DNA from: a virus
Length of the DNA stretch: 64,000 nt
IMG/VR virus record: IMGVR_UViG_3300032272_000003
Coordinates: 64,001 to 128,000 of that record
Reading direction: 5' to 3' (one strand)
The notes under the pieces were generated by a model. That model was not told the origin of the DNA. It saw only the letters and a list, made by a program, of their open reading frames with translations, and made no database searches. Shown here one piece after another: positions 3,052-60,903 of this stretch. Made by a program: the position numbers and the translations under genes. The first letter of the stretch is position 1. The number at the start of each line of letters is the position of its first letter.

Positions 3052-3566
3052 TACTTCTTAAGTCCTTGCTTGTGAATACTAGTGAACGGGCTTGACTCTT
3101 TCGCTACCGATGGCCATCCTATAAGTGGAATTGGTGACTCTATGACACCTAATAAAATGATCTTGTATCGACGTATGGCTCCGTACATCTGTGGAAATGC
3201 TTTTACAACCGCTCTGTAATCTACCAGGAGAGGCTTTCGCTGCTTGATGCGGGGCTTGTTAGACTGAAGGATGAAGTCGAGTACACCACGTCTTATATTC
3301 GTCGGTACATATCTCAGGTTGAACGCCATCACAGTGTTGTACTTGGATTCGAAAGCGAATGTTAATATCAGTGGTGTTGGGTCAGTATCAAACCCAGCAT
3401 ATACTGCCCTGGCCAGGTTCCCGATGATAAGGGGTTTCTTCTTCTTCTTTTGATATTCTTTGGAATGATATAAATCAACGTTGAGTGTACCTATACCTAC
3501 CTTGATGGTAGATTCGATTTTATCGTAGAGTTGATCCACATTTCCTCTGTTGGTTACTGTAGCCAT
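3051..3566 (-). CDS. gp2: DNA end protector protein (T4 gp2-like)
   Basis: FDTDPTPLIL, AFNLRYVP..IR and AIRRY motifs resemble the gp2 family; late promoter upstream. Confidence 0.7.
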   Translation of the reverse strand: MATVTNRGNVDQLYDKIESTIKVGIGTLNVDLYHSKEYQKKKKKPLIIGNLARAVYAGFDTDPTPLILTFAFESKYNTVMAFNLRYVPTNIRRGVLDFILQSNKPRIKQRKPLLVDYRAVVKAFPQMYGAIRRYKIILLGVIESPIPLIGWPSVAKESSPFTSIHKQGLKK

Positions 3567-3571
3567 GAGTA

Positions 3572-3579
3572 TATTTATA
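3572..3579 (-). promoter_or_regulatory. Late promoter TATAAATA, 5 nt before ATG (leaderless)
   Basis: TATAAATA-TACTC-ATG. Confidence 0.8.
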
Positions 3580-3670
3580 GCAGTTAGAAAGTGGGATGTT
3601 ATTCAAAATGATGTATAAACATTTGTTTATGGTTACCATAAGTAATCATTATACAAATAGTTCAAAATCA

Positions 3671-3726
3671 AGGGAACTAAGTAGTTCTAAAAGTGGTCAA
3701 AATACATGACCCCTAGGGGGAATATT
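3671..3726. repeat. 56-bp element, perfect inverted copy at 51902..51957
   Basis: Direct base comparison gives 56/56; contains the CCCCTAGGGG palindrome and a GAACTA-AG-TAGTTC hairpin. Confidence 0.95.
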
Positions 3727-3750
3727 AACAAATCCTCTAAAATTACCTGT

Positions 3751-3782
3751 TGTATGATGCGAAGCGTAGCGAGTATCATACA
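3751..3782. other. Hairpin with GCGAAGC/AGCGTAGCGAGT loop, origin-like
   Basis: TGTATGATGC...GTATCATACA stem in a 400-bp AT-rich non-coding gap. Confidence 0.5.
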
Positions 3783-3972
3783 TAAATCTTGAGTTATTAA
3801 CTGTACGTATCATAGATATTTCAATTGTTATTATGATTTAAGGATTGTGTTTATAGATCGTGATGATTACTGAGAGAAAGTGAATCATAGAAGTTAGTAC
3901 TGCCGTCATTATGTCGTGAAACATATACCTTATACTTCTCTTTAATCATGTTCCAAAGTTCTTCTCCGCTAA

Positions 3973-4365
3973 TCATAGGGTTTCTGCCGACTTGTATAAC
4001 TGATAGTCATCATGTTGCCATAAAGTTAGGTAATCAGCACATAAGTAAGTTCCATTATAATCATATATCTCATAAGCTGTACCAATATATTCAATATTAG
4101 CAACCACCGCGATGTCAAACTCATCGGACATCGCATTGATCATCTTACATAGGTGTTTGTAATATTTGAATCCATCATCTGTCACCGGTATATATCCTAA
4201 GTGCCTACCCCTGTATATGGTATCATCCATCATGGCAGTGTTCTCTCTCCAGAAATCAATGATATAGTTCTCACCACCACCATTCTTGGTGAACTCATAC
4301 TTATGTTTGTGGATATGGGCCATGATTATTCTCTCGAATACTGATCTTGGAGGCATTTTAATCAT
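3973..4365 (-). CDS. Small hypothetical protein, W...YKA..L family
   Basis: Ends LWQHDDYQLYKSAETL; ATGA-coupled. Confidence 0.8.
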   Translation of the reverse strand: MIKMPPRSVFERIIMAHIHKHKYEFTKNGGGENYIIDFWRENTAMMDDTIYRGRHLGYIPVTDDGFKYYKHLCKMINAMSDEFDIAVVANIEYIGTAYEIYDYNGTYLCADYLTLWQHDDYQLYKSAETL

Positions 4366-4685
4366 AACATGGTGGCCTTATATAGGGATATTATATTCAC
4401 ATCAGTGGTTCTATAGAGGATTTTAAGCCTCTTACCGACTGCTACGGTGTTATATGCTATACCAATGGCATAGCACCCCTCATTGTCGAAATACTTCTCT
4501 GCTCTTAATATCGCATTCTTCAGATTATTAAGACTTATATTCTGGTTGATGTTATGTATCCATGTATAATGGTTATAAACATCGATGCATACGAGTTGAT
4601 GGCCATAATTACGTTCACTATAGATTGTCCTAATGGCATCCATAACAGCCACATAGTGTAGGTACTTGGTATGATATACGTTCAT
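4362..4685 (-). CDS. Small hypothetical protein, W...YKA..L family
   Basis: Ends IISLYKATML; ATGA-coupled. Confidence 0.8.
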   Translation of the reverse strand: MNVYHTKYLHYVAVMDAIRTIYSERNYGHQLVCIDVYNHYTWIHNINQNISLNNLKNAILRAEKYFDNEGCYAIGIAYNTVAVGKRLKILYRTTDVNIISLYKATML

Positions 4686-5029
4686 AATATCTGGGCCTTA
4701 TATCTGGTGATAATCTCAATGTCCTCTGACTGCCACACTTTATAGGAGACGATATCATCGATCTTTAGTGAGTCAGGTACAACCTTAGCAAACGGAGAAT
4801 ACGTCAAAGTTATCTGATATATTGGGGTGTCGTGTTCTGTGAAGTTCAAATATGTATCTGTGAGTAACTGAATGAGATTGGTATCCCACTCGAAAAAAAA
4901 ACACATGATATTAGCATCGGCGTCGATGCCCGTGACCATGAAGTTACCCGAGGACTCAGGGTCGATCTCCTGTTTCATATCCTTTAACAATAGGATCATG
5001 TTAATAAAGAAATCACTATATTCGATCAT
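4682..5029 (-). CDS. Small hypothetical protein, W...YKA..L family
   Basis: Ends VWQSEDIEIITRYKAQIL; ATGA-coupled. Confidence 0.8.
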   Translation of the reverse strand: MIEYSDFFINMILLLKDMKQEIDPESSGNFMVTGIDADANIMCFFFEWDTNLIQLLTDTYLNFTEHDTPIYQITLTYSPFAKVVPDSLKIDDIVSYKVWQSEDIEIITRYKAQIL

Positions 5030-5463
5030 AGCTTAGCTCCATAATATGATGTTAAAATATCATCATCCTTCGCCCTGGCAATCTCAAATGTGTTTTTTGG
5101 GAGTAAACGGACTCCTGTTTCGAAGTGACGTTGGTAATTATTGTTACGCTCTATATTGGGCATAAAAGAGCCAGTAGCAAAAGCAACAGCAACACCATTT
5201 AAGTTTTTTTTAGCTGACCACTCATATGATAACAGTTTCATCATCTTCCGATGAAACCAGGTATTATAAATATCAGACGCCGTAATACCTTCAATGATAT
5301 AACAATACACCCTAATTTCATTGGTGACAGTTTTAATCTCCATACTGAAATTGAACACATTAGTCTTCAGACACCCACCAACCATTACCATTGCCCGAGC
5401 CTTTAAGTACTCTGTCTTGATAACATCATTACCAACGGCGGTATAATGCTTTCTATCAATCAT
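5026..5463 (-). CDS. Small hypothetical protein, W...YKA..L family (divergent)
   Basis: Ends DDILTSYYGAKL; ATGA-coupled. Confidence 0.8.
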   Translation of the reverse strand: MIDRKHYTAVGNDVIKTEYLKARAMVMVGGCLKTNVFNFSMEIKTVTNEIRVYCYIIEGITASDIYNTWFHRKMMKLLSYEWSAKKNLNGVAVAFATGSFMPNIERNNNYQRHFETGVRLLPKNTFEIARAKDDDILTSYYGAKL

Positions 5464-6185
5464 AGCTTAGATGCCTCCCACATTAACCTGATAGAATCGT
5501 CTGGGTTGGTCCACACAATGGTATCACAATCTTTAATATCAAATTGACCTTTACCATCTTTCCGAACTTTCCATCCCCAATGGTCCAGGCGAATGTACAG
5601 CCTGTATATATTACTCACATATGCACCACGGATAATGCTTTCAATATCTTCCCCACCGAGTCTGTTCATGCTGCCAACCGTCTTGATAAACTTCATCCTA
5701 CCTTCAACAACATTCTCACCTAAAAATTCGAAGTGACGCTTGAGACCATTATAATCACCGGTGGCTTCTTTATATATGGCCCTTGCCTTCTTAAAGGCAA
5801 TTTCTACTTCCTTGAGGGTAGGTATTATTAATTTAACCGCCTCAGTAACGTGAGGTAGTGGCACCAGATCATCAATAATACTTTGTATTAGTTTTTGTCG
5901 GTGCTGGTAGGTGAGGTCACTCACTGATGAGTTGGAGATACAGACGGTGTATTTGTCAATTTCGCTCAGGTTTCGTATAGGTTGGAATTCTGGTGGGATG
6001 TCACAATGAGCAATGCGTTTCATGATCATCGTAGCGATACCGCGACTTGGTAAGGCACTAAGTTCGTCACGGATATCCATTATCTGCCGTGCCAATTCTT
6101 TGGCACGGGCCAGCTTCTCGGCTATCTTCTTCGCATGATCTCGAAGTTCTTCGATATCAACATCATTGATATCGAAATCAATCAC
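5460..6185 (-). CDS. Hypothetical coiled-coil protein with the family C-terminal tail
   Basis: Likely GTG start at 6185 after AAGGAG; ends VWTNPDDSIRLMWEASKL. Confidence 0.8.
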   Translation of the reverse strand: MIDFDINDVDIEELRDHAKKIAEKLARAKELARQIMDIRDELSALPSRGIATMIMKRIAHCDIPPEFQPIRNLSEIDKYTVCISNSSVSDLTYQHRQKLIQSIIDDLVPLPHVTEAVKLIIPTLKEVEIAFKKARAIYKEATGDYNGLKRHFEFLGENVVEGRMKFIKTVGSMNRLGGEDIESIIRGAYVSNIYRLYIRLDHWGWKVRKDGKGQFDIKDCDTIVWTNPDDSIRLMWEASKL

Positions 6186-6351
6186 CGATAAACTCCTTGA
6201 CAAGACGAAGAGCCTCTTCAGGATCATCATCGTCTTCAAGGGCAACACGAATCATGTCCAACATTTGAGATATGGTACCTGACTGCATGGATATCTGGTG
6301 CTGAAGTTCATCTATCTTCGATTGCATCATAATTGATTCTAAACTATTCAT
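6178..6351 (-). CDS. 57-aa hypothetical protein (below ORF-track cutoff)
   Basis: SD CAGGAG; MNSLESIMMQ...LVKEFIGD; first gene after a sigma70 promoter. Confidence 0.7.
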   Translation of the reverse strand: MNSLESIMMQSKIDELQHQISMQSGTISQMLDMIRVALEDDDDPEEALRLVKEFIGD

Positions 6352-6374
6352 ATCATTCTCCTGTGTTATGGGGG

Positions 6375-6403
6375 ATTCTATCAGTTTAAGATTGTTAAGT
6401 CAA
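6375..6403 (-). promoter_or_regulatory. Sigma70-type early promoter
   Basis: TTGACT-17-TAGAAT with TG extension, heading the 6351-3973 operon. Confidence 0.75.
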
Positions 6404-6910
6404 TTGCTCTTTGATGAAATCGATCTTCCAGACCCTGATAAGGTTCTCAAGGGAGATGATCATATATTTACCATACATCATGTAGGGACAATCAATGGTT
6501 TCGATGTCTGGTAGGAACTCATCGTCGGGGTTGATCACTGCAAACTCACCCTTACGATTGATTTTGAATAGAAGTAGGAAGTTTTTATTGACGAATTCTG
6601 AATCGCCTTCGTTCTGAGTAACCCATTTGTTGAATGTAGCGTCACCGCCCTGGAGTAAAAGGTGGAATCCTGGCTTATCAGCATAGGATTTACACTCTAT
6701 TAAGTAGGGGAAGCCCTGTGGTCCGATAATGTCACCAGAAAGAATCTCCTGGGCATCCTCTCGCAGTCCTGTAGCTCCAGCACGGTTCTTACCGCCAGTA
6801 TATGCTCCAGAGTTAGGGGTTCGTCTGAACTCTGCCTCGAATAACACTGTGAACCTCTTAGCGATGTCTAGCTCGAACCGATTGCCTTTCTTCTTACTGT
6901 TAACTCCCAT
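6395..6910 (-). CDS. Holliday junction resolvase (Hjc-like PD-(D/E)xK)
   Basis: NSKKKGNRFE, RRTPNSGA, GDI and IECK motifs. Confidence 0.85.
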   Translation of the reverse strand: MGVNSKKKGNRFELDIAKRFTVLFEAEFRRTPNSGAYTGGKNRAGATGLREDAQEILSGDIIGPQGFPYLIECKSYADKPGFHLLLQGGDATFNKWVTQNEGDSEFVNKNFLLLFKINRKGEFAVINPDDEFLPDIETIDCPYMMYGKYMIISLENLIRVWKIDFIKEQLT

Positions 6911-6928
6911 GGTGAATTCTCCTGGTAC

Positions 6929-6936
6929 TATTTATC
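6929..6936 (-). promoter_or_regulatory. Late promoter GATAAATA for resolvase
   Basis: Consensus variant upstream of SD CAGGAG. Confidence 0.7.
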
Positions 6937-6943
6937 ACATGTG

Positions 6944-6973
6944 GAAAGGGCCAGCCCAATGGCCAGCCCTTTC
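6944..6973 (-). terminator. GC-rich hairpin, probable terminator
   Basis: GAAAGGGC...GCCCTTTC arms; U-tract is weak. Confidence 0.55.
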
Positions 6974-7084
6974 ATTCGTCCTTGCTCAACTCATCTAGTT
7001 TATTGCTCTCGATCAGTCATAGTCCTCCTCCATGATACATCCCTGCCTTACGTTTCATTTGGACGCTGATGTCAATGAGCGGGG

Positions 7085-7184: not shown

Positions 7185-7559
7185 ATGTTAACGAAAGAAG
7201 AAGCATATGACTATCGCCATAAAAAAGCAGTGTTTGAACGTGCTGTAGAAGAAGCCCTGGAGCTGTATATGTACACATTCAGAGAGGGTACTAAAGTAAC
7301 ATGGATTGATAATATTCGATCTGAATTAAATCAGCATATAATTGTGGCATGTAACCAACCAACAGAGATGATCTATTTACCATTTGAATGTTTGTACAAT
7401 GAGAGATGGATTGATCCTCTAATACTACAACAGATGCCACATATAGTGAGAGAGCGAGAAGTTCAGATTAAGATCGCCCAAACAAGAAAGGATTCACAGG
7501 ATGAAACCGATTATAAAACGTATCTCCACTTGAAAGAGATATTCGAACCGAAGGACTAA
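7185..7559 (+). CDS. Hypothetical protein (leaderless late gene)
   Basis: 124-aa ORF filling the gap; GTTAAATA-CAACT-ATG; no SD. Confidence 0.75.
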   Translation: MLTKEEAYDYRHKKAVFERAVEEALELYMYTFREGTKVTWIDNIRSELNQHIIVACNQPTEMIYLPFECLYNERWIDPLILQQMPHIVREREVQIKIAQTRKDSQDETDYKTYLHLKEIFEPKD

Positions 7560-11370: not shown

Positions 11371-11685
11371 TTAGTTGCCTTCGAATATCTTGAAATCTTT
11401 ATGTAGCAACTCAAGAACTCGTCCTTTGTATTCAATGTATGACCACGGATAGCTGCTCACTTTATCTAGCGCTTCAATTGCTTCATCCAGCGTTCGGAAG
11501 TCATAAGAATATTTACAGTTTCTCTCAGAGCAAGAATCATCCCACCATCTCCCCGCTAACACTTGATAATCACCAGTGTCGTCAACTAACAATTGGGTAG
11601 AGTTCGACGCGCTTACCGAGTCGCTTCCATTAGTTTCTTGGATTTGTTCTTTGTCAGTACTCACATTAAGTTCCTCTCTCATCAC
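11371..11685 (-). CDS. Hypothetical protein, possibly cassette-derived
   Basis: ORF whose body is flanked by the 9-bp inverted repeat TGTTAGTTG/CAACTAACA. Confidence 0.7.
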   Translation of the reverse strand: MMREELNVSTDKEQIQETNGSDSVSASNSTQLLVDDTGDYQVLAGRWWDDSCSERNCKYSYDFRTLDEAIEALDKVSSYPWSYIEYKGRVLELLHKDFKIFEGN

Positions 11686-12092: not shown

Positions 12093-12536
12093 TCAACTCA
12101 ATTCTTCATCCTGATCCCTGGCATCGGTGTCATCGCCCTCCTTCTCTTTAATATGATCGATGTAGCTTTGGCTAGGGGCTTTCTCCTGGTCAACCAGTAA
12201 TTGGTCACGGAGACGTTGGTGGCGTTTCTCTTTGTTCAGTACTTGGAGAAAGGCGTGATGGATGCACTGGGTGAAGTATGCGAAGGGGTTGTTGCTCTTG
12301 TTAGAATCAAACTTCTCGAAAGCAGCGGTACACGATACTATCCCATTGGATACCATCTCATCTTTGTAGCTGTAACCGGCAAAATTAGGCTTGGTGGCAT
12401 ACCGCTGGCTCAGTAGAATGAACATCCGGCCAAGCTTATCACTGACCAGACCTACTTCCTTACACTCGTTTATCTCTTTCAGCATCTCCTTATTACTAAG
12501 GTAGTGCTTGTCTTGTTTGATCTGCATAATTAACAA
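12093..12536 (-). CDS. gp55: Late-transcription sigma factor
   Basis: HYLSNKEM, PNFAGYSYKDEM and NPFAYFTQ motifs; likely start ATG 12527. Confidence 0.96.
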   Translation of the reverse strand: MLIMQIKQDKHYLSNKEMLKEINECKEVGLVSDKLGRMFILLSQRYATKPNFAGYSYKDEMVSNGIVSCTAAFEKFDSNKSNNPFAYFTQCIHHAFLQVLNKEKRHQRLRDQLLVDQEKAPSQSYIDHIKEKEGDDTDARDQDEELS

Positions 12537-12614: not shown

Positions 12615-12833
12615 ATGAAAAAGTATACAAACATCAGTAAGGGACTCCAGCCAATCGAATTTACAGACGGTACAGGTATCTTCCTGCGTCGTGGTCAGAG
12701 CATTGAAACAGACCAGGAACCGGTAAGCGTACCAGACGGTATCGTCGTGGTCGAGGTCAAACAACCAAAGCCTAAGAGAACCGCTATCGTAGAAGTTGAC
12801 GAGGACGAGAAAAGCCCATCTTCTGCTAAATAG
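12615..12833 (+). CDS. Small late protein upstream of tail sheath
   Basis: SD GAGGA; late promoter. Confidence 0.7.
   Translation: MKKYTNISKGLQPIEFTDGTGIFLRRGQSIETDQEPVSVPDGIVVVEVKQPKPKRTAIVEVDEDEKSPSSAK
12825..12832 (+). promoter_or_regulatory. Late promoter GCTAAATA for sheath
   Basis: Consensus variant 68 nt upstream of gp18. Confidence 0.6.
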
Positions 12834-12900
12834 AGGTATACCAAAAGAGAATTATAATCTACTCGTAGATTAGCTAACTATATTTAAGGAGTATAAATCA

Positions 12901-14406
12901 ATGACAATTCCTATTTCAGCGGGTGTTTACCCACGAGAAATTGATAAATCCGTAGTGGTACCTGCTGTCGCGGGTTCAATCGCTGCCATCATCATTAACT
13001 CCCCTAAAGGACCAAGCAACGTGGTCACAACAATCACAAACAACAAGGAATTCGTGGACACCTTTGGTGCACCTGAACCTGACCTTCCAGCAATGTATGC
13101 TGCTTTGGCCTTCCTTGAAAGAGGTAGTAACCTCAAAGTTGTTCGTGTTGTGGGTGCCGGTGCTGTCGCTTCTTCTGCTACATTCGTCGATTCTGGATCA
13201 AACCAGTCGTTGATCTTCGAAGCAAGAGGTGAAGGTGTTTGGGGTGATGATATCGATGTGAAGATCAGCTTGATCGATGACGTTGCTGAGACTATGACGG
13301 TCGAAGTTTTGGAATCTGCAACAGCGGTCGTATTAGAGACATTCGTGATCTCTAAAAACGTAACAAAGAAAGACGGCTTTGGCCGTAGCCAGTTTGCTGA
13401 AGATGTAATTAACGGTGTATCTGCATATGTAACAGTCACAGACGTGCCTGCTAATGGTTACCCTGATGACAGTGGTACTCCTGTAGAAGGCCCATATGTA
13501 CAGAAAGCCCTAACCGGTGGTTCTGATGGTGCTGCTGTAGGTTCTTCTGAAATCAACGTTGGCTGGGACTTGTTCGCAGTTAAGGAAGAAGTCGAAGTGT
13601 CAATGCTTATCCAGGGTGGTTGGGATTTAGTTCCTGTCCAAACTAAGATGATCGGTGTTGCTGAAAATCGCCAAGACTGTATTGCCCTGCTGGATATTCC
13701 ATACGCAGTGACACAATCTGCCACTGCTGTTGACGACATGGTAACATTCGCTAACACAACCTTGAACCAGGATACTTCTTGGGCCGCATTATACGGTGGT
13801 TGGGTAACAGCGTATGACCAATACAATGATAAGAATATCGATATGCCACCTTCTGGTTTCGTAGCCGGTGCGATTGCTCGTACTGCCGACGTTGCTGAAA
13901 TCTGGTATGCACCTGCTGGTGCTGTTCGTGGTCGTTTGAATGCCCTTGGTGTGACTAACGTTTTCACTGAAGGCCATCGTGACACACTGTACACTGCCCG
14001 AATCAACCCTATCCAATCATTTGTTGGTGAAGGTATTCAAATCTTCGGTCAGAAGACCCTACAGTCAATTCCTTCTGCACTCGACCGTGTAAACGTTCGT
14101 ATGCTCATGATCACTATCATGAAGGCTATGACCCTGGCCCTACGTCCATTCGTGTTCGACTTCAATGACACATTCACTCGTGAGAATATCGGAAGTATTC
14201 TTAACCAGTACATGACAGATATCAAATCTCGTCGTGGTGTTACTGACTTCTTGGTTGTGGCTGACGATTCAAACAACACAGCACAGATCATTGATAACAA
14301 TCAAATGATCGTTGATGTGTATGTTAAGCCAACACGAGCTGCTGAGTTCATTCGCTTGAATGGGATTATCTCTGCTACTGGTGCCAGCTTCACGGTTCAA
14401 ACATAA
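12901..14406 (+). CDS. gp18: Tail sheath protein
   Basis: SAGVYPREID, WYAPAG..RG, FGQKTL, LDRVNVR and KPTRAAEFI motifs. Confidence 0.97.
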   Translation: MTIPISAGVYPREIDKSVVVPAVAGSIAAIIINSPKGPSNVVTTITNNKEFVDTFGAPEPDLPAMYAALAFLERGSNLKVVRVVGAGAVASSATFVDSGSNQSLIFEARGEGVWGDDIDVKISLIDDVAETMTVEVLESATAVVLETFVISKNVTKKDGFGRSQFAEDVINGVSAYVTVTDVPANGYPDDSGTPVEGPYVQKALTGGSDGAAVGSSEINVGWDLFAVKEEVEVSMLIQGGWDLVPVQTKMIGVAENRQDCIALLDIPYAVTQSATAVDDMVTFANTTLNQDTSWAALYGGWVTAYDQYNDKNIDMPPSGFVAGAIARTADVAEIWYAPAGAVRGRLNALGVTNVFTEGHRDTLYTARINPIQSFVGEGIQIFGQKTLQSIPSALDRVNVRMLMITIMKAMTLALRPFVFDFNDTFTRENIGSILNQYMTDIKSRRGVTDFLVVADDSNNTAQIIDNNQMIVDVYVKPTRAAEFIRLNGIISATGASFTVQT

Positions 14407-14419
14407 GGAGATATGAGAA

Positions 14420-14920
14420 ATGGCTAATATTCAAGAAGTAAGATCAATCAATAACCCACAAAAGAGTTACATGTGGGAAATTGAAGTTCAAGGTCTCGCA
14501 ACCGGCTCTCTGTCTAACATGGCGTTTTTCGCTAAGACAGTATCAATCCCACAGTCAGCGGTAGAACAGATCATCATCAATCACAAAGCAGGTCGTACAC
14601 ACTTCGCTGGTCGTGATGCTGGTGCTCATACTGTCACTGTAACATTCTGGGATGATGAAGCTCAAACAATCCTGAAGTTCTTCCATGAATGGATGGACCT
14701 GCTTCGCAACCATGTAACAGCAAGTGGTGTCACTCGTGACCTGTACGCTGCCAGCCTGGTAATCAAGCTGAAGGATGAGTCCGACGAAATAGTTACTGCT
14801 AAGATCACCCTGGGACATTGTTTCCCTACTGATATTGCAGATACTCCATTGACTTATGATTCAAGTGAGCCTATCGAGCATTCGGTAACGCTTAGCTTCG
14901 ATGAGAAGATCATCGAGTAA
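14420..14920 (+). CDS. gp19: Tail tube protein
   Basis: Follows the sheath; AKTVSIP, AGR, TVTFWDDE and CFPTDI motifs; ends at a strong terminator. Confidence 0.9.
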   Translation: MANIQEVRSINNPQKSYMWEIEVQGLATGSLSNMAFFAKTVSIPQSAVEQIIINHKAGRTHFAGRDAGAHTVTVTFWDDEAQTILKFFHEWMDLLRNHVTASGVTRDLYAASLVIKLKDESDEIVTAKITLGHCFPTDIADTPLTYDSSEPIEHSVTLSFDEKIIE

Positions 14921-14976: not shown

Positions 14977-14984
14977 TATAAATA
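14977..14984 (+). promoter_or_regulatory. Late promoter TATAAATA, 5 nt before ATG (leaderless)
   Basis: TATAAATA-GATAC-ATG. Confidence 0.85.
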
Positions 14985-14989
14985 GATAC

Positions 14990-15586
14990 ATGGCTATCCG
15001 TAAACTATTTTCAAATCTACCAAACATCCGTCGTGTTGCAGACCTCGTGGGTGCATCCCCTGTAGGGGAACCACAGAAGCAATATGCATGGGAACTCTGG
15101 ATTACCGGAGGCGTTGCTGCTCATATGGGTGATATCAGATTCTTCGCCAAGACAGTATCACTTCCACAGAAATCAATCGAGCCTATCTATACAGAGCTGG
15201 CCGGGGTCAAGTATCAATACCCAGGCAAGGATACAAGTGCAAGAACAATCACGGCGACGTTCTTTGACGATGAACACCTTACTGTATACAACTATATGAA
15301 GAAATGGATCGATCTCATGCATACCCCTGGTGAAGGAGATGCACTGCCCAAGGCACAGACCGTAGCGAATATCGCTGTCAAGCTGAAGGATAGTACTGAC
15401 CTGGTACAAACATTAACTGTCAACATGCCAAACGCATTTATTATCGATCTTGGTGAGGTACCGTTAGATTACGAGACATCGGATGCTATCGAGATCACAG
15501 TAACATTCGCATTCGACGATCCTACTGTTGAAGACGGACAGAAGCTCGGTGATATTACCGATCTATTGAAGAGTGTATTAAATTAA
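14990..15586 (+). CDS. Tail tube-like paralogue (gp19/gp54 fold)
   Basis: Shares FFAKTVS.P, T.TF.DDE and KLKD with 14420..14920. Confidence 0.85.
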   Translation: MAIRKLFSNLPNIRRVADLVGASPVGEPQKQYAWELWITGGVAAHMGDIRFFAKTVSLPQKSIEPIYTELAGVKYQYPGKDTSARTITATFFDDEHLTVYNYMKKWIDLMHTPGEGDALPKAQTVANIAVKLKDSTDLVQTLTVNMPNAFIIDLGEVPLDYETSDAIEITVTFAFDDPTVEDGQKLGDITDLLKSVLN

Positions 15587-16290
15587 TGGCCAATGAATCT
15601 TTAAAAGACCTACAAGCAAGACGTGCATCGTCTAAACCCGCCCGTTCATATTTGTGGCGGGTTGTATTGCCCGACCTTCGGATCACTAATGCCCTGGTAC
15701 CGGTACACGCCGATGCTGTTGCTGCCCTACAAGAGCTTGCCAGTGACCAGCATATGAATGTGAGTGCCCGGATCAATACTATGACAACCCCATACCGCAC
15801 ATTCGAATCACAACAAGCAATGGATAAGAATGGTGTATGGAACTATGCCGGGAAGCATAACACTCCTGAGATTACAATTGAAGTGTTCGAGGAAGAGGAT
15901 GGTTCAACCCTTCACTACTTCGATACGTGGATGAAGCTCATTCGTAATGTGTCAGATGACACCTATAACCCACCTGCTATCTATAAGAACCCTATCGTAT
16001 TCATTCGTATGGATACACAGAGACAGGACTTTGAGGTTACTATATACGAGGGATACTTCATACAGACCATCAACGAAGTTTCAAACGAATATGAAGGTAA
16101 CGACCTTGTACGTTACCAGGTAAACCTAGTAGGGGATAACATAATTCATCATCGTATATCCAACAACCAGCAATACCAGGCAGGATTAAGCCCATTACAG
16201 ATCAGTCCGAGTTTAAGGCAAACCCTGACTAATAACATCGGTGATGCGATTAAGAAGATAGCAGGTGATGCTAAGAATTTGCTACCATAA
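15586..16290 (+). CDS. Tail tube-like paralogue (gp54-like initiator)
   Basis: PARSYLW, YAGK, YFDTWMKLI and YNPPAIYK tube-fold motifs. Confidence 0.7.
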   Translation: MANESLKDLQARRASSKPARSYLWRVVLPDLRITNALVPVHADAVAALQELASDQHMNVSARINTMTTPYRTFESQQAMDKNGVWNYAGKHNTPEITIEVFEEEDGSTLHYFDTWMKLIRNVSDDTYNPPAIYKNPIVFIRMDTQRQDFEVTIYEGYFIQTINEVSNEYEGNDLVRYQVNLVGDNIIHHRISNNQQYQAGLSPLQISPSLRQTLTNNIGDAIKKIAGDAKNLLP

Positions 16291-16315: not shown

Positions 16316-17137
16316 ATGGATTTTTTAGAAGACGACGACCTAAACGCTGATGACAAAAAGGCACCGACACCAGCACTACACGAACCAACCGCTACCAAAT
16401 GGTATGATGTTGAGTTACCTTCCAAGGGTAAGCTCGGGTATCCTGCCGTAATCCAATACCGTGATATCCTCGTCCGTGATGAGAAGATCATATCGACTGC
16501 TACCACTAAGGACACCATGAAGGTGTTGAATGATGTGTTGAAAGACATCGTTAGGGACAGTGATTCATTCTTCGATCAGTTAACAATCCTTGATCGTGAC
16601 TATCTGCTTATGTGGATATGGGCCAACAACTACTCTATGACCAAGCATCTGAACATTACATGTCAGCGTTGTGGTACTAAAGAGAAACAGGACGTTAACC
16701 TGGCTGAGGTAGATGTGGAAGACCTGTCTGACGACTATCACCACCCATTCGAATACACCCTGGCAAGTGGCAAACCAGCACTGCTTAGACTCACCGCCAT
16801 TAGTGATGAGAAAACATGCGATGCTCATATGGCCAGTAACCCTAAAGCAGACCGCACTATGGTCATGCTCGCCCTTACAACTGATCTGGGCACTGTTATG
16901 CCGCTTCAACAGAAGCTACGGTATATGGAAGAAGAAATCACCGGCCATGATATAGGTATGATTCGAGCCTTCCACAATCACTTCAAGTATGGTCTCGATG
17001 ATGAGATTCCGCATGAGTGTTCGGTGTGTCAGGAGGTCACGCCGTTTGGAATACCGTTTTCAGCCGAGCACTTTCTGCCCACCCTATCAAACGATTTTGA
17101 AACGTTGTTACGATCTAGTAAAAAATCTGGGGATTGA
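16316..17137 (+). CDS. gp26: Baseplate hub assembly protein (gp26-like)
   Basis: VELPSKG, VRDEKI, DRDYLL and two CxxC motifs. Confidence 0.85.
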   Translation: MDFLEDDDLNADDKKAPTPALHEPTATKWYDVELPSKGKLGYPAVIQYRDILVRDEKIISTATTKDTMKVLNDVLKDIVRDSDSFFDQLTILDRDYLLMWIWANNYSMTKHLNITCQRCGTKEKQDVNLAEVDVEDLSDDYHHPFEYTLASGKPALLRLTAISDEKTCDAHMASNPKADRTMVMLALTTDLGTVMPLQQKLRYMEEEITGHDIGMIRAFHNHFKYGLDDEIPHECSVCQEVTPFGIPFSAEHFLPTLSNDFETLLRSSKKSGD

Positions 17138-26612: not shown

Positions 26613-27007
26613 AATTTGTTTGCCTTATAGGTTAGCTTGACCTCTGGATCAGGATGGGTCCATACGTTACAATGTAGTACTGTTTTCTCAGAAACAGCAT
26701 CTACAGTATCTATAGTATCTGGATAATAGTAACATTCCATGGACAGTTTATAAATCATATCACCACTATATTCATCAATCTCATTTAACATAATACTAGC
26801 CAAGTACTCAATTGTAGTATCATCAATATATTCATGATGGAAATAGTATAGTTGACACCTAACACCATCCACGGTATGAACAATCACACGTCTACCATTT
26901 GTGTTACCTCTTTCCACCCACGCTTTGTGGCAATCAATCATTTGAGCCGCAATAGGTATAAACTCTTTGTGAGTCAGTTCTGATAATCGCTTGTATTCAG
27001 ATGTCAT
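26609..27007 (-). CDS. Small protein, WTHPDPE..YKA..L subfamily
   Basis: Start ATG 27007 after GGGAG; ends VWTHPDPEVKLTYKANKL. Confidence 0.85.
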   Translation of the reverse strand: MTSEYKRLSELTHKEFIPIAAQMIDCHKAWVERGNTNGRRVIVHTVDGVRCQLYYFHHEYIDDTTIEYLASIMLNEIDEYSGDMIYKLSMECYYYPDTIDTVDAVSEKTVLHCNVWTHPDPEVKLTYKANKL

Positions 27008-27012
27008 AAATA
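27005..27012 (+). promoter_or_regulatory. Late promoter CATAAATA, 5 nt before gp5 ATG (leaderless)
   Basis: CATAAATA-CTCCC-ATG. Confidence 0.8.
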
Positions 27013-27017
27013 CTCCC

Positions 27018-27833
27018 ATGGATGAAATGACATTTAACGGTAACTATAGAGCCATTGTAACAGATAACAACGATCCTTTGCAAGCAGGAAGGGTTAGGGT
27101 TCGGGTTATGCCCATGTTTAAGGATGTTGACGCTGACGCTCTGCCCTGGGCGGTACTGGCTGATGCCTTTATGGGATCGCCTAATGCCGGGTCAGTTAAT
27201 ATACCTGAGATAGGTGCCAACCTATTTGTATTCTTTGAGGCCGGTGACCACCGGTACCCAGTATACTTTGCCACTGCTCCATCCATACAGAACGGTACAC
27301 CCGATCTGCCTACCCTCACCAGGGAAGCAGACGATTCAGTTACCGATATCAATACCAATGCTAAGAAAGGTGTAGGGACAGCCTCGGGTAGCTCCTGGGA
27401 TGAGCCTGGTAGCGCCTATGCAGCCGTGTACCCAGAGAATAAGATTTGGAAGACCACCGATGGCCTATTGATAGAATTGGACGATACAGACGGTCAGCTT
27501 CGCTTCCACATATACCATCCAGCCGGTACCCGTATGGAGATCGATAAGGATGGCAACGAGGTTAACCACACACAGGGTAATCGATTTACTGTTGTCGTCG
27601 GTGATGATAAAGTTTATATCACAGGGAATGGCGACATTACAGTAGATGGGGACATGGGTATTAAGGTGGGTGGTGATACCAAGATAGATGTTACCGGTAA
27701 TGCTGATATTATTGCTGCTGGGGATGCCTCAGTAGAGAGTGTTAACTCAACTGTTAAGGGGTCAGCGAGTGTTACTATAGATGGTGGCCCTGCTGTCACT
27801 ATCACTGGTGGATTAATTAGTCTTAATCCTTAA
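27018..27833 (+). CDS. gp5: Baseplate central spike (gp5/VgrG-like OB fold plus beta-helix, no lysozyme)
   Basis: YRAIVTDNNDPLQAGRVRVRV, LPWA, YPENK, ELDDT and VxGD repeats. Confidence 0.92.
   Translation: MDEMTFNGNYRAIVTDNNDPLQAGRVRVRVMPMFKDVDADALPWAVLADAFMGSPNAGSVNIPEIGANLFVFFEAGDHRYPVYFATAPSIQNGTPDLPTLTREADDSVTDINTNAKKGVGTASGSSWDEPGSAYAAVYPENKIWKTTDGLLIELDDTDGQLRFHIYHPAGTRMEIDKDGNEVNHTQGNRFTVVVGDDKVYITGNGDITVDGDMGIKVGGDTKIDVTGNADIIAAGDASVESVNSTVKGSASVTIDGGPAVTITGGLISLNP
27054..27083 (-). promoter_or_regulatory. Sigma70-type promoter inside gp5 driving the 27007-23036 island
   Basis: TTGCAA-18-TACAAT with TG extension. Confidence 0.5.
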
Positions 27834-34356: not shown

Positions 34357-34386
34357 ATATTAACCTAATAAATAAGGGTATGTCAA
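34357..34386 (-). promoter_or_regulatory. Sigma70-type promoter for the 34312-27830 island
   Basis: TTGACA-18-TAATAT; the -35 lies in the first codons of gp25. Confidence 0.6.
34367..34374 (+). promoter_or_regulatory. Late promoter AATAAATA, 5 nt before gp25 ATG (leaderless)
   Basis: AATAAATA-AGGGT-ATG. Confidence 0.75.
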
Positions 34387-34769
34387 GACAAACTAAATAC
34401 AGTGATATCGAATTCCAAATGAAACGCGATGTCGGTGGTGAGATTATCATCGTCCATGGTGAAGATGCTATTGGACAATCGATCAAGAACATCCTCTCTA
34501 CCTACCCAGGCGAGAGAATCATGAATCCCGAGTTCGGTAGTAGGATGAGAGACTTCCTATTCGAGCCTATGAACATCATCACAGTTGAACGTATGGAGCT
34601 GGAGATCAGACGTGCACTCACTCAGTGGGAAGATCGTGTCAATATCATCCAGATCAAGGTCAAAGATGACCTGGACAACAACTACTACGACATCACAGTG
34701 ATGTACAAGATCAAGACTACTGGCCATACCGCTTTCTTCTCAGGGAAAGTCAGACCAGCAAGCGACTAA
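34380..34769 (+). CDS. gp25: Baseplate wedge subunit / sheath initiator
   Basis: YSDI, AIGQSIKNILSTYPGER..PEFGS...LFEP and WEDRV motifs. Confidence 0.95.
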   Translation: MSRQTKYSDIEFQMKRDVGGEIIIVHGEDAIGQSIKNILSTYPGERIMNPEFGSRMRDFLFEPMNIITVERMELEIRRALTQWEDRVNIIQIKVKDDLDNNYYDITVMYKIKTTGHTAFFSGKVRPASD

Positions 34770-53977: not shown

Positions 53978-55588
53978 TTAGAATACAAACGGCAGGGCGT
54001 CCAAGTCTTCACTGTCATCTTCGGTGGCCAGGGCCACGGCACCCATGTTGTTCATCTTCTCATCACAGTCATCATCGTACCGAGCCATCTCACTTAAACA
54101 GAGCGTGGTCAGTACGGCACCCATGGCCAGATCGTCCTTCTTACCAGACTCGGCGGCGAACGATGCACCTTTCTTAACGAAGAACTTCAGTTCACTCAGT
54201 AATGCACGGCTATGAATAGTCATAGCATGAGACTCAACCAAATCTTTCAACCTAGAACAGCCCTTCAGCTTGGTAGGGTTGGTCATCAATATACCCTTTT
54301 TCTTTCTCTGGGATACGAACTCAGCATCATCAAGGATCGGGTGATCAGAATTCTGCAATAGATGGATGACACCCATACCGATTGGGTTGGATTCGATTGT
54401 GTAGTAAATCTGTCGGCACTTCATCTTGTCAAGCAGTATCAGGACTTTGATGATCTTCTTGGCGAAGTCGGTAAGGTTCATGTTATTGTCACGGAACTCA
54501 CCCACCTGCTCGAATGTCTTCTTGTCGAATATCTGGATAACCGAGTAGTCACCACCGGCACCGATACCCTCTGCCACGTCAATACCCAGCACAAGCTCTC
54601 TACGAGCCACCACACCATAGAAGTCGATGTCGTCAATGACCTTGACCGGTTCGATCCATGGAAGCCTCTCAAGGCATGAGGATTGTATCAAGGTACCTTT
54701 ATCAGATACGAAGGCACACTCAAACTCCTGGGCATACTTGGTAGCGGTCATCTTCTGGAGCATCTTCTTTTTGAATGCCTCAGTTCTGCCTGGTACCTCA
54801 CCACTGAACACCTGGATAGGAGCAAAACCATTATCACCTCGCTCGGCACCGAACCATAGCTCAGCGAACAATCCTTCGGATGTATTAGGGGTGGATGTGA
54901 TGATTACTTTCTTACCATCTAGTTCACCACCAGATAATGATGGCAGGATAGAGGTCCAGAACTCTTCAGCGATACGTGGTTCAACGAACGCAAACTCATC
55001 CAGGTACAGACCTCCTGTGAGCGTGAACCCACGGAAGGTATCGTCTGTGGTCGTTGCAGATATTACTGTTGAGTGGTTATCGAACTCAACCTGATGCTTA
55101 TTGTACTCGATTACCGCTGGCTTGATCCATGATGGTAGGAATTCATAAGCATATTTGAATCGTTTAATAAGATCGATGGCATTCTTACCCTTATGTGCTG
55201 CCATACCGATTACCTTGTCTTGGAAGAAACACGTCATCCATAGATAGAAGGCAACGATTAGAGTTGACTTGCCAGACTGCCTGGGCTGAAGAAGGATTGA
55301 ATAGTCATTGGCCACCAGGCTCTTGATGATTTTCTTCTGGTATTTACGGAGTTTGAATAGGGCAGAGCCTTTGTCAGTTTGGATGTAAACGAAGTTCTCT
55401 ATGAAGTAAATAGGATTCTTAAAGCACTTGACGTACTCAACCTCCTGCCAATCTTCAAGGACATCACTCTCATGGGGCTTCTTAATAGATGCTCTCTTGG
55501 TTATGTTGCCTTTTGAGTCAGTACCCCTCGCCTCAATAAGGCGCGGTTTGTTCTTAGTTCTCACACGTTTGGTTGGTTCATCTGCCAT
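53978..55588 (-). CDS. gp17: Terminase large subunit
   Basis: NPIYFIENFV, PRQSGKST, YLDEFAF, ITSTPN, GIDVAEG and DDLAM motifs; likely start ATG 55588 (frame open to TTG 55723). Confidence 0.97.
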   Translation of the reverse strand: MADEPTKRVRTKNKPRLIEARGTDSKGNITKRASIKKPHESDVLEDWQEVEYVKCFKNPIYFIENFVYIQTDKGSALFKLRKYQKKIIKSLVANDYSILLQPRQSGKSTLIVAFYLWMTCFFQDKVIGMAAHKGKNAIDLIKRFKYAYEFLPSWIKPAVIEYNKHQVEFDNHSTVISATTTDDTFRGFTLTGGLYLDEFAFVEPRIAEEFWTSILPSLSGGELDGKKVIITSTPNTSEGLFAELWFGAERGDNGFAPIQVFSGEVPGRTEAFKKKMLQKMTATKYAQEFECAFVSDKGTLIQSSCLERLPWIEPVKVIDDIDFYGVVARRELVLGIDVAEGIGAGGDYSVIQIFDKKTFEQVGEFRDNNMNLTDFAKKIIKVLILLDKMKCRQIYYTIESNPIGMGVIHLLQNSDHPILDDAEFVSQRKKKGILMTNPTKLKGCSRLKDLVESHAMTIHSRALLSELKFFVKKGASFAAESGKKDDLAMGAVLTTLCLSEMARYDDDCDEKMNNMGAVALATEDDSEDLDALPFVF

Positions 55589-55608
55589 GGATTTTTTACC
55601 TATCATTT

Positions 55609-55616
55609 CATAAATA
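55609..55616 (+). promoter_or_regulatory. Late promoter CATAAATA antisense to the terminase leader
   Basis: Predicted +1 (55622) coincides with the 5' arm of a closed stem. Confidence 0.55.
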
Positions 55617-55621
55617 CTATT

Positions 55622-55699
55622 GAAGCGGGTGTATATAATGTCGCCTACGTTAGAAGTGTTTTTCATCCTCCTTTTTGATACTTCACACCCGCTCCTTTT
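55622..55699 (+). ncRNA. Candidate small RNA with anti-Shine-Dalgarno loop
   Basis: AGCGGGTGT/ACACCCGCT outer stem followed by TTTT; inner GAAGTGTT/GATACTTC stem; loop TTTCATCCTCCTTTTT. Confidence 0.45.
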
Positions 55700-55728
55700 A
55701 CTACTTCCTTTTACATACCTCAAACTTG

Positions 55729-55736
55729 TATTTATA
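55729..55736 (-). promoter_or_regulatory. Late promoter TATAAATA for terminase
   Basis: Exact consensus right after a terminator. Confidence 0.8.
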
Positions 55737-57317: not shown

Positions 57318-57338
57318 GGGTGGTTCTCCTTGTGATAG

Positions 57339-57357
57339 TATTTATGAGTGATAAATA
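57339..57357. promoter_or_regulatory. Back-to-back late promoters
   Basis: CATAAATA (-, 57339-57346) and GATAAATA (+, 57350-57357). Confidence 0.7.
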
Positions 57358-57395
57358 TACAGACAAAGTTCAATTAAAAAGGTAAACGTTATAAT

Positions 57396-59936
57396 ATGTC
57401 AATTGTAAATACGAAGAAGTCCTATGATGGTGACATGTCGGACGTAACTAAGGAACCAACCGGGTTCCCAAATCGCACGGATTCAGTAATATCATTCGAT
57501 GAACTAACAAGAATTTTTACAATTGAACCTGTTGATGTATCATTCGACATATACACGAAGGGTAATCAATATACCATAACAGGTACTTCCCAAGTCACTA
57601 TCGATGATATAGAAGGTGATTATTTTATATATTTTGATGAGTTAGGAGAATTACAATTTGTAGCTGGATTTGATCCAAGAGTAATATCAGATTGGGTTTA
57701 TACATCAGTTATACACTGGGATGCAACCAATAAAAAAGCTATAATATTTGGAGAAGAGCGCCATGGTTTGACTATGGATGGAGCAACCCATAGCTATCTA
57801 CACACCGTTAAAGGATCACAATATATTTCCGGGTTTGCACTCGATAATATTCTACCAGGCGAAGCCGGGGATTTAGATATTCATGCCCAAATTAGTGTCA
57901 ATAACGGGCAGTTTAGGGATGAAGATATCCTCCATAATATCATCGATGATGCTCCCCAAAATTTGAGCCTACCAGCAACTATTCCAGTTATTTACCGAGA
58001 CGGCGTTGATGGATATTGGAGAATGAAAACTGCTGATTCATTCCCCATGATTTATTCAGGAACTGCTGGATATGTTGGTGCCAGTGGGAGATTACCATTC
58101 AATGAATTTACCGGCACCACATGGCAATTGACCGAAATTGGTAATGGGAAATTTGTTGTAATGCATATTTTAGCAACCAATGATACCAGATGGCCAATAA
58201 TGGCTATACAGGGGCAAAGTGAATATATAACATCATCTGAGGCTAAGGATGGAGTTGCTTCCGAATTACTAAATTTAGCCGGACTACCATTTCAAGAATT
58301 TGTTGCCCTTGGTTCTATTATTTTTACGTCCTCAAACAACATGACAAATACACCACAAGCCGCAGTCATTGCTACAGATGACGGTCAGCCATATTTCGAC
58401 TGGAGAGAAATTACTTCGTTCGCTGGTGGAGGTGTTGTACAGGATCATGGTTCTTTATCTGGTTTATTAGACGATGATCATCCACATTACCACACTGATG
58501 CTAGAGGTGATGCCAAGTATTCACAATTAGGTCACAATCATGTTGTCTCAGAAGTGTTGATAGGGGATTACGTTGGTGGTGGTACTCCATCTATCGATGT
58601 TGGCACATTAGGGAACGGTTATATAGATTCTGTTGGACTTATTGGTAATAATGGTTTTGGATTGGTAACACAGAATGGCGCGTTAACTATTGATATAGCC
58701 GCAGGTGCAATCAATATTAGAGCCACCGATGATGTCACATTACCGTTAGAGTATCTTGGATTTGCCGCAGTCACGAATTTGGACGTGTCTGTCTTTATCA
58801 ATGGGCCAGCTTTAGTATATCTTGACTACACCAATGGTGCATCTATTCAAGTATCAGCTACCCATCCAGACCCATCCGAAGTGAGACAAGATATCATTTT
58901 GTTGGCTGAAGTTCATTTGGGTGCCACTTCCATCAATGACATACATGACATAAGACAATTTGTAGGCAATCATGTGCAAGAGAATACCATATTACATAAG
59001 AACATTTTTGGCACATTAGTTGATGGACAGATCAGCAGTGAAACTGGTGTTAGAAATTTGGTAGTGGAATTTGGAGGATTCTATCGTTGGGGCAATAATA
59101 TTCAACAACAACAAACATTCGATTCATCGGGTACTGATACTTTCGTATATTGGTATAGAGATGGAGTGGGTGGGTGGACTACTCTCACTTCTGAAACACA
59201 GCTCAACAATACCCAATATGATGATGGTACTGGAACATTAAGCAATTTGAATAATAACAGATATAGGAAGGACTGGATTTTTAGGAGTCTGTCTGGACAG
59301 GTTAATGTGTTACTGGGACAAGTCCAGCATACATTATTATCTTCGGCAATCGATGAGCCAGTCCCAACATTACCAGATGGGTTAGGTGAGTCTGTACATA
59401 TATACCTACTATCCACTTATATTATTCAAGAAGGGACAAGTATAGGAATATTCACTGATCTTGCGAATAGGTTCAAAGGGGGTGGTGCTGGGTCAACAAC
59501 AGATCATGGAACCTTATCTGGATTGTCTGATGATGACCACCTACAATATCACGACGATACGAGAGGGGATGCAAGGTATTTCACCAAAGCAACCTATCAA
59601 CACGCAGCGTCAGAAGGACAATCATCAACAACAAATACAGTATTCCAACAAAAACTAAGAATGACTACTGGTACATTACCTTCGGGTGATTATAAGATAA
59701 GTTGGAATACAGTTGTAACTAGTACGGTTGGGGATACCGCAGAAATGCAAGTCCAAATAGATGATACTATTACAATAAACTTAAGTTCTACATCTGAGAC
59801 CGATGCTTCATCGATGTCTGGTTTTTATATTGCTACTGGGGTATCAGGTGTTCTCGATATCGACATAGATTACAGGGCAGTATCCGGCACAGCATACATA
59901 GAATATGCGAGATTGGAAATTACACGGGTGAACTGA
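57396..59936 (+). CDS. Large beta-rich virion/fibre-like protein
   Basis: 846 aa; two DHGxLSGLxDDDHxxYH repeats; late promoter. Confidence 0.7.
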   Translation: MSIVNTKKSYDGDMSDVTKEPTGFPNRTDSVISFDELTRIFTIEPVDVSFDIYTKGNQYTITGTSQVTIDDIEGDYFIYFDELGELQFVAGFDPRVISDWVYTSVIHWDATNKKAIIFGEERHGLTMDGATHSYLHTVKGSQYISGFALDNILPGEAGDLDIHAQISVNNGQFRDEDILHNIIDDAPQNLSLPATIPVIYRDGVDGYWRMKTADSFPMIYSGTAGYVGASGRLPFNEFTGTTWQLTEIGNGKFVVMHILATNDTRWPIMAIQGQSEYITSSEAKDGVASELLNLAGLPFQEFVALGSIIFTSSNNMTNTPQAAVIATDDGQPYFDWREITSFAGGGVVQDHGSLSGLLDDDHPHYHTDARGDAKYSQLGHNHVVSEVLIGDYVGGGTPSIDVGTLGNGYIDSVGLIGNNGFGLVTQNGALTIDIAAGAINIRATDDVTLPLEYLGFAAVTNLDVSVFINGPALVYLDYTNGASIQVSATHPDPSEVRQDIILLAEVHLGATSINDIHDIRQFVGNHVQENTILHKNIFGTLVDGQISSETGVRNLVVEFGGFYRWGNNIQQQQTFDSSGTDTFVYWYRDGVGGWTTLTSETQLNNTQYDDGTGTLSNLNNNRYRKDWIFRSLSGQVNVLLGQVQHTLLSSAIDEPVPTLPDGLGESVHIYLLSTYIIQEGTSIGIFTDLANRFKGGGAGSTTDHGTLSGLSDDDHLQYHDDTRGDARYFTKATYQHAASEGQSSTTNTVFQQKLRMTTGTLPSGDYKISWNTVVTSTVGDTAEMQVQIDDTITINLSSTSETDASSMSGFYIATGVSGVLDIDIDYRAVSGTAYIEYARLEITRVN

Positions 59937-60008
59937 TAAGTTATCAGTATGGATACCAGAATTCATCTTTATGTGGTTGTTCGGGACTTCGACTGTCTAA
60001 TAAATATT

Positions 60009-60380
60009 TTATAACATAATATCAATTAGTATGGTTTCTAAATCGAAGTCTTCATCACCGATCTCCCACTTATATAATACAGATTCTCCTTTAAAATTAC
60101 CACGACTGATGAAAAAGTCAGTACAGTGTATAGTGAAGATAATACCATCATGATCAACAATCACCCATTCGAATTCATCATACTCACCCTCAATGTTCAT
60201 ATCAGTCTCTTTGATCATATTCCACAGTACAACACGACGTAGGACTCTTAAGTATTTAAGCTCAACAGGTACCATTGGTGATGATGACACGTATTGCCCC
60301 GGTACACATCTCCATTTGGTCTTAATGAGGTTATCATACCGTGCAGGTAAGTCTTTTAGATTGTATTTTTGATATCTCAT
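60009..60380 (-). CDS. Small hypothetical protein
   Basis: Paralogue-like to 60377; ends LETILIDIML. Confidence 0.75.
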   Translation of the reverse strand: MRYQKYNLKDLPARYDNLIKTKWRCVPGQYVSSSPMVPVELKYLRVLRRVVLWNMIKETDMNIEGEYDEFEWVIVDHDGIIFTIHCTDFFISRGNFKGESVLYKWEIGDEDFDLETILIDIML

Positions 60381-60721
60381 AGGCTGACACTCATCAGGAA
60401 GGCTTCAATATCTACATTATTAGGTATTCCAGCCCGATCATGCTTATCATACCATCGCCATAGGTATTCTTTATCATTATAATGGAGTGCCAGGGCTGGT
60501 ATTGAAAAACACATATCACCCTGCTTGATTAAAATATATGTCTCATCGTGGTATTCACCCTCAACCATATGATATGCTACCACATTATGACGATTCATCG
60601 GGAATGATTTTATAGATTTGAAACGACCATAGTGGTGTAATCCAAAGAAGCCATAACCAGCCATTTTGAATTCTTGAACATGAAATAACAGCTCAGATGC
60701 TGGGAATTTGAGAAACTTCAT
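60377..60721 (-). CDS. Small hypothetical protein
   Basis: Likely start ATG 60721 (MKFLKF); ends IEAFLMSVSL. Confidence 0.7.
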   Translation of the reverse strand: MKFLKFPASELLFHVQEFKMAGYGFFGLHHYGRFKSIKSFPMNRHNVVAYHMVEGEYHDETYILIKQGDMCFSIPALALHYNDKEYLWRWYDKHDRAGIPNNVDIEAFLMSVSL

Positions 60722-60861
60722 CCAGCGACACCAAGAAACAGGGCTATCACGAACCATCCCTTTACCAACCCCACAACACATATGGCTAATGTGGCTACAA
60801 GTGCCACGATAAAAGGGCGTCCACTTTAATCTTCAAGACCTTCTTCATGATATCACTCCTG

Positions 60862-60869
60862 TATAAATA
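60862..60869 (+). promoter_or_regulatory. Late promoter TATAAATA, 5 nt before gp15 ATG (leaderless)
   Basis: TATAAATA-GATGT-ATG. Confidence 0.85.
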
Positions 60870-60874
60870 GATGT

Positions 60875-60903
60875 ATGGTACACTACTATAATGCTCAAGT
60901 CAA
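60875..60903 (-). promoter_or_regulatory. Sigma70-type promoter inside the gp15 start
   Basis: TTGACT-17-TACCAT, driving the 60848-60009 genes. Confidence 0.55.

Follow-up and report, generated by a model that had tools for sequence, protein, structure and literature searches.

A T4-type late box five bases ahead of start codons points to probable leaderless late mRNAs in a sediment phage

In a T4-like myophage recovered from a sediment metagenome, we identified T4-type late promoter boxes that lie exactly five bases before the ATG of the first gene of a unit (a layout referred to here as N5), and these N5 genes probably make leaderless late mRNAs, with transcription starting on the AUG itself. 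In the proposed mechanism, host RNA polymerase carrying a phage gp55-like sigma factor would read NATAAATA boxes as T4-type late promoters. In the eight transcription units with the putative promoter exactly five bases before the ATG of the first gene, transcription would start on the A of the start codon and would give an mRNA with neither a leader nor a Shine–Dalgarno (SD) sequence, to be translated by ribosomes that recognise a 5′-terminal AUG. The same type of promoter, placed 16–38 nt upstream and combined with a strong AGGAG, would serve the bulk structural genes, and two modes of translation initiation would then operate inside one late regulon. The leaderless mode would apply to first genes encoding gp2, gp5, gp25, gp15, a gp13/14-like neck protein, a tube paralogue and a phrog_11591 virion protein. 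The best explanation of the sequence data is that, for the first gene of each unit, the N5 message is leaderless or carries a leader of at most 1–3 nt.

The window analysed here, a 64,000-nt stretch of DNA, comprises bases 64001–128000 of one 147,679-bp virus contig that is rated 43% complete by CheckV; counts that might be called genome-wide are therefore contig-wide. In the phage collection searched, it is closest to the Alishewanella phages Slicko01 and Slickus01, with ∼40% terminase identity, and the nearest relatives of gp15 and the terminase include those of the jumbo phages PA5oct, Phosso and Atu_ph07. Given the completeness estimate and these jumbo-phage relatives, the genome of the phage may far exceed the contig in length. 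Contigs from three sediment runs yielded the same phage only, with few single-base differences, which lay away from the covered N5 sites. Among the sequencing runs listed as containing this DNA, none was of RNA. The gene names proposed in the initial annotation of the window (gp2, tube paralogue, gp5, gp25, gp15, terminase, sheath and tube) were confirmed by PHROG matches, which also identified the portal and a head protein in the window and the capsid and scaffold just before it. A 56-bp repeat (3671–3733), ∼105 nt upstream of the gp2 start, is a breakpoint of the contigs from the source run. Both ends of a 48,235-nt contig fall on 3697–3733 in opposite orientation, so that the 48 kb flanked by the inverted copies may be able to invert, or may have been assembled in an arbitrary orientation.

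Position and spacing of the late boxes

Six late genes with a box five bases before the start codon had been listed in the initial annotation, and all six sites read as claimed (Table 1). Five of them are genes with a PHROG name, but the sixth, at 7185, proved to be an orphan with no PHROG or Pfam match and no homologue among 5.8 billion proteins. This candidate ORF, which also has a weaker box, is the weakest of the six sites.

Table 1. Late-box sites and related features in the window (positions are those of the window).
Feature	Position	Strand	Details
gp2-like DNA end protector	3564–3579 (gene 3051–3566)	−	TATAAATA box 3572–3579, spacer TACTC, ATG 3564–3566
Orphan ORF, 124 aa	7172–7559	+	GTTAAATA box, spacer CAACT, ATG 7185
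gp55-like late sigma factor	12093–12536	−	T4 gp55, 3e-14 (phmmer); phrog_234 'late sigma transcription factor', 1e-32
Sheath operon (contrast class)	12615–14920	+	72-aa gene with a late box 24 nt ahead of it, followed by sheath and tube; TAAGGAG 8 nt ahead of the ATG in both
Tail-tube paralogue, 198 aa	14977–15586	+	TATAAATA box 14977–14984, spacer GATAC, ATG 14990; phrog_45, 1e-27
gp5-like baseplate hub protein	27005–27833	+	CATAAATA box, spacer CTCCC, ATG 27018; phrog_430, 2e-52
gp25 baseplate wedge subunit	34367–34769	+	AATAAATA box, spacer AGGGT, ATG 34380
Terminase large subunit promoter and leader	55664–55736	−	Terminator, TATAAATA 55729–55736, TTG 55723, probable ATG 55666–55664 after AAAAAGGAGG
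gp15 tail sheath stabiliser	60862–61630	+	TATAAATA box 60862–60869, spacer GATGT, ATG 60875

The pattern TAAATA-N5-ATG occurs seven times in the window compared with 1.27 expected, and 0/100 shuffles reached seven. No long ORF follows the seventh match (11502–11515, minus strand), which is the one to be expected by chance. Across the contig, a tally of how far TAAATA lies from an ATG opening at least 60 codons gave eight cases at spacing 5, two at spacing 6 and none at spacings 3, 4 or 7, with a broad hump at 14–38 (Poisson P ∼6e-10 for the N5 spike against neighbouring spacings on the contig). The excess at spacing 5 that had been predicted was found in this phage and in relatives (see below). 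Two of the eight N5 genes fall beyond the window, at contig 143522 (the phrog_11591 virion protein) and 145004 (the gp13/14-like neck protein, phrog_211). Also outside the window, N6 boxes at contig 22855 (plus strand) and 36472 (minus strand) precede ORFs of 122 and 113 aa from no known family, and a near-variant at contig 16637–16640 (minus strand) has the arrangement CATAAATA-N2-ATG-GTG, which places the GTG at N5.

All eight N5 starts on the contig are ATG, and when all sets were combined, N5 triplets opening at least 100 codons were ATG in 95 cases and GTG in 4. The base preceding the N5 ATG is a pyrimidine at 7/7 of the phage's own sites, 8/9 sites in Pelagibacter phage HTVC008M and 83/84 environmental sites, compared with 60% for all genes here. 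This bias fits the usual preference of transcription start sites for a pyrimidine at −1 and a purine at +1.

The presumed reader of the late box is the gp55-like sigma factor encoded in the window, and NATAAATA boxes stand before the capsid, scaffold and portal genes and the sheath operon as well as before the N5 genes. In a review of T4 late transcription, the late box is numbered from −13 and extends to −6 (PMC2988020), so that, as the initial annotation had reasoned, N5 spacing would put the A of the ATG at +1, assuming that T4 start-site geometry holds for a divergent sigma factor. The contig encodes a homologue of the gp44 clamp loader. No gp45 was found on this 43% complete contig with Pfam models or T4 gp45, and the Pfam control likewise matched nowhere.

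Most N5 genes are located at strand switches or just past a terminator, with gaps of <100 nt, at places that require a promoter. The gp5, gp25 and gp15 genes are each the first plus-strand gene after a minus-strand block, across a gap of <100 nt, and at the tube paralogue a GC-rich hairpin and T-run terminator lies directly upstream of the box. This gene is one of two tail-tube paralogues (198 and 234 aa; 14990–16290) downstream of the main tube gene; only the first has an N5 box, and the second adjoins it and lacks an SD. At the gp5 site, the same 16 bp hold the box and ATG on the plus strand and, on the minus strand, GGGAG, five bases and the ATG (27007) of a divergent early gene. Within 27005–27020, the gp5 start codon overlaps a start codon of the minus-strand ORF in the palindrome CCATGG, and for the gene opposite gp5 the start at 27007 is more likely. 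The SD of that start, GGGAG, is the complement of the gp5 spacer, and the complement of the late box separates this SD from the ATG. The gp5 gene also contains a TG-extended sigma-70-like promoter (27083–27054).

Start codons and SD-led late genes

We considered whether the real starts of the N5 genes might be SD-led codons further downstream, an objection that the initial annotation had raised against its own proposal. Homology argues otherwise for gp2, gp15, gp25 and the neck protein, in which, judged by alignment with relatives, the N5 ATG is the true N-terminus. The alignments of 25 homologues to gp15 begin at residue 3; the gp15 frame is closed by a stop 27 nt upstream of the start and has no further start codon before codon 49. 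The profile match of gp25 also starts at residue 3, and residue 2 of the neck protein (145004) is aligned with residue 7 of an environmental homologue. Two gp2 homologues (71% and 55% identity) share the M-A-T opening that follows from the N5 ATG, and an SD-led GTG at codon 10 was rejected as the gp2 start on these grounds. The stored gp2 gene call (P0090, 162 aa) opens at this GTG and drops nine residues that are conserved in relatives. Neither gp5 nor the tube paralogue has an SD-led alternative start.

None of the eight N5 starts is preceded by an SD, whereas the sheath, tube and 43495 head protein genes are strongly SD-led, as had been noticed when the window was first read. The sheath, tube, 43495, capsid, scaffold and portal genes have (T)AAGGAG or TAGGAG 5–8 nt before the ATG, and for the capsid, scaffold, portal, sheath and tube the AGGAG lies in a leader of 16–38 nt. 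Promoter-proximal genes thus fall into two clean classes, with spacing of 5–6 and no SD in one, and a 16–38-nt leader with an SD in the other. When the first 35 nt of coding regions were folded, the N5 genes showed no significant reduction in structure relative to the other genes (P = 0.07).

The large terminase ORF (53978–55723, minus strand) had also been proposed to open at a TTG with the same spacing. The spacing of 5 was borne out, but the TTG is improbable as a leaderless start, with an in-frame ATG 19 codons downstream (codon 20) that follows AAAAAGGAGG and homology only from residues 31–80. The terminase box is directly preceded by a terminator, and from the sequence the message is best read as a leadered late mRNA with a leader of ∼57 nt. 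Two AAGGAG-like sites are present in this leader (55664–55723, minus strand). One is 5 nt before an out-of-frame GTG, which opens a mini-ORF of ∼7 codons whose TGA lies over the terminase ATG, and the other adjoins the probable terminase ATG with zero spacing, making this an odd initiation region.

The N5 genes had been described as encoding mostly low-copy virion parts. In agreement, every identified N5 gene encodes a low-copy part and every high-copy part is SD-led, and SD-led genes also include those for the 12-copy portal and a baseplate hub protein. The only quantitative hint for a role in dosage is that coding bias scores lower in the N5 genes (P = 0.03). Two late tiers that set virion stoichiometry would fit the visible pattern, an idea that we regard as tentative and that carries the caveat that only the first genes of units can be leaderless at all.

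The N5 layout in other phages

In T4, Slickus01 and Syn9, ATAAATA was found at N5 before a long ORF in no case and formed only a hump at 10–45 nt. KVP40 had no matches to the pattern, EcS1 had three, with none at annotated CDS starts, and 0–4 matches were found in each of Phosso, XacN1, RHph_I1_18 and Atu_ph07. Since T4, Syn9, Slickus01, KVP40 and EcS1 have no spike, N5 is not a by-product of the box itself. PA5oct had two N5 ORFs. In HTVC008M, 9/45 ATAAATA boxes stood at N5 before a long ORF, and these nine boxes compare with seven at leader distance (16–43 nt). Seven of these N5 sites are in the annotated stretch that was examined, all at annotated CDS starts (7/7), and the others are at 75559 and 142360. 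The HTVC008M N5 genes include gp2 (DNA end protector), a gp25-like wedge subunit, gp48 (tube cap) and gp29 (tape measure); gp25 of HTVC008M shares 30% identity with gp25 here, and both have an N5 box.

Around gp15 homologues, 37/240 ATAAATA boxes in 80 IMG/VR loci and 52/356 in 80 metagenome loci stood at N5 before a long ORF. Together, these 160 environmental T4-like loci contained 84 non-redundant N5 cases, with at least one N5 case in 67/160 loci and at least one at N4–N8 in 96/160. The environmental N5 genes belong to phrog_211, phrog_11591 and tube-like families, which are common to the N5 set of this phage. For tube-like genes and gp2, the link between phages consists of profile matches only, as pairwise comparisons were not significant. 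Among orthologues the sequence of the spacer varies and its length is kept. These data are best explained if the N5 status of particular virion genes has been conserved over long evolutionary distances. Counting against a strict rule, the distance from box to ATG ranges from 4 to 8 nt in the phrog_11591 family of the environmental loci, which would imply a shifted start site or leaders of 1–3 nt in some cases. Several environmental loci (L114, L117, L150, L159 and others) have late boxes back to back (TATTTAT, ∼5 nt, ATAAATA), which would drive divergent leaderless phrog_211 and phrog_11591 genes from a gap of ∼30 nt.

In 80 IMG/VR loci found with gp25, this gene is operon-internal and there was no N5 spike. 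The gp15 gene is operon-internal in all distant relatives, and its N5 box is therefore, as far as these loci indicate, specific to this lineage or closer kin. No close relative of gp15 (single query) or gp2 was found in IMG/VR; the closer relatives by protein were gp15 homologues with 45–61% identity and gp2 homologues with 49–71%. On a wider scale, it is possible, though we would not favour it, that the T4-like phages of a large aquatic and sediment clade employ leaderless mRNAs for low-copy parts (gp2, gp5, gp25, gp15, neck and tube initiators) and SD-led mRNAs for bulk parts, with stoichiometry set partly at translation initiation and a per-gene status that predates the split of the lineages.

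Alternative explanations and comparison with known systems

Leaderless translation is inefficient in E. coli-like hosts, which we counted against leaderless N5 messages, this phage otherwise using strong SDs. A/U-rich tracts ahead of an AUG can help translation initiation, and the boxes might be late promoters whose genes are translated mainly from longer transcripts started upstream (read-through or late antisense), with the A/U-rich box acting as an SD-independent ribosome landing site. The spread of 4 to 8 nt in one environmental family would suit such a role, as would the transcription of both T4 strands at several sites and at different times in the cycle (PMC2988020). However, the spacing is far sharper than a loose enhancer allows, a terminator lies directly before the 14990 box and the pyrimidine at −1 (83/84) is a signature of transcription starts, not of ribosome binding. 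At 16–38 nt, moreover, the same motif always comes with a separate AGGAG, and we consider translation from upstream-started transcripts unlikely. It seems very unlikely that the layout simply results from the packing of the genome where early and late genes diverge, with signals on two strands overlapping to no benefit of their own, because the exact 5-nt rule and the pyrimidine at −1 would be left unexplained. The 16 bp of gp5, with box and ATG on one strand and SD and ATG on the other, would be consistent with packing, as would the location of most N5 genes at strand switches and the environmental loci with two divergent boxes back to back within ∼30 nt. In contrast, there is no divergent junction at the 14990 gene, and the layout is kept at gp2, gp25 and neck genes despite ∼26–30% protein identity.

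The promoter might also fire at the AUG for the sake of timing or robustness and not of dosage, giving messages that could still be translated late in infection if ribosomes, S1 or initiation factors are altered by the phage or by a host defence. Leaderless mRNAs, according to Brock et al. in 2008, are reportedly translated independently of S1 and of an SD and are resistant to kasugamycin, and the layout predominates in SAR11 phages. Since the essential bulk late genes here are still SD-dependent, bypassing the SD could not rescue virion production as a whole, and we view this purpose as quite unlikely. Leaderless mRNAs at the heads of N5 units are the reading that we prefer.

If the messages do start on the AUG, late expression in the T4 family has a second, SD-free tier that is absent from T4. 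Late-promoter prediction failed in a study of pelagimyophages (PMC7029224), and the N5 layout may explain this failure. Annotation is also affected, as the stored gp2 call, nine codons late at the SD-led GTG, shows how gene callers can misplace the starts of N5 genes. The layout could serve as a simple sequence criterion by which true starts and late genes are located in uncultured T4-like phages, and as a natural system for studying how leaderless translation doses the components of virions where the host otherwise depends on strong SDs.

T4 late promoters consist of TATAAATA at −13 to −6 and are served by the gp55 sigma factor, the gp33 co-activator and the gp45 clamp. The same 8-bp box is used here, with no other conserved element noticed, and this phage further resembles T4 in encoding a gp55 homologue and in having the box before virion genes on either strand. 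In T4, however, ATAAATA always lies 12–41 nt before long ORFs, which leaves room for an SD, and never at N5, whereas about a quarter of the promoter-proximal late genes of this phage are predicted to have no leader. Closer in layout are HTVC008M and uncultured aquatic T4-like phages, in which ATAAATA-N5-ATG occurs at gp2, gp25, tube-related, neck and phrog_11591 genes. Their proteins are ∼26–38% identical to those of this phage where pairs align, and unlike HTVC008M this phage has kept a large strong-SD class.

Known leaderless mRNAs include that of lambda cI, transcribed from PRM, and those of mycobacterial and archaeal genes, with a −10 box fixed 6–7 nt before the start codon. The hallmarks of such mRNAs are the absence of an SD, an AUG start, with ATG preferred in the gene, and a −10-type box at a fixed short distance, and the N5 genes here show these sequence features. 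In GeneMarkS-2, this signature serves to predict leaderless genes (PMC6028130). Known leaderless genes depend on the main sigma factor of the host; here a phage late sigma factor would take this role, for some of the virion genes, and strong SDs occur within the same regulon. Likeness to poxviruses is by analogy only. Poxvirus late promoters have a TAAATG initiator that overlaps the start codon, and slippage adds a 5′ poly(A) leader. A late-promoter element is thus fused to the ATG of structural genes in both cases, but the poxvirus polymerase is unrelated and its mRNAs carry the 5′ poly(A) leader. T4 late promoters and leaderless mRNAs are each known separately; the literature searched, with key subscription papers outside its coverage and an earlier description therefore possible, contained no description of leaderless T4-type late genes and no paper on the fusion of the two as a T4-like gene class. 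Specific to this phage, as its sequence is read here, is a predicted leaderless class beside a strong-SD class within one late regulon.
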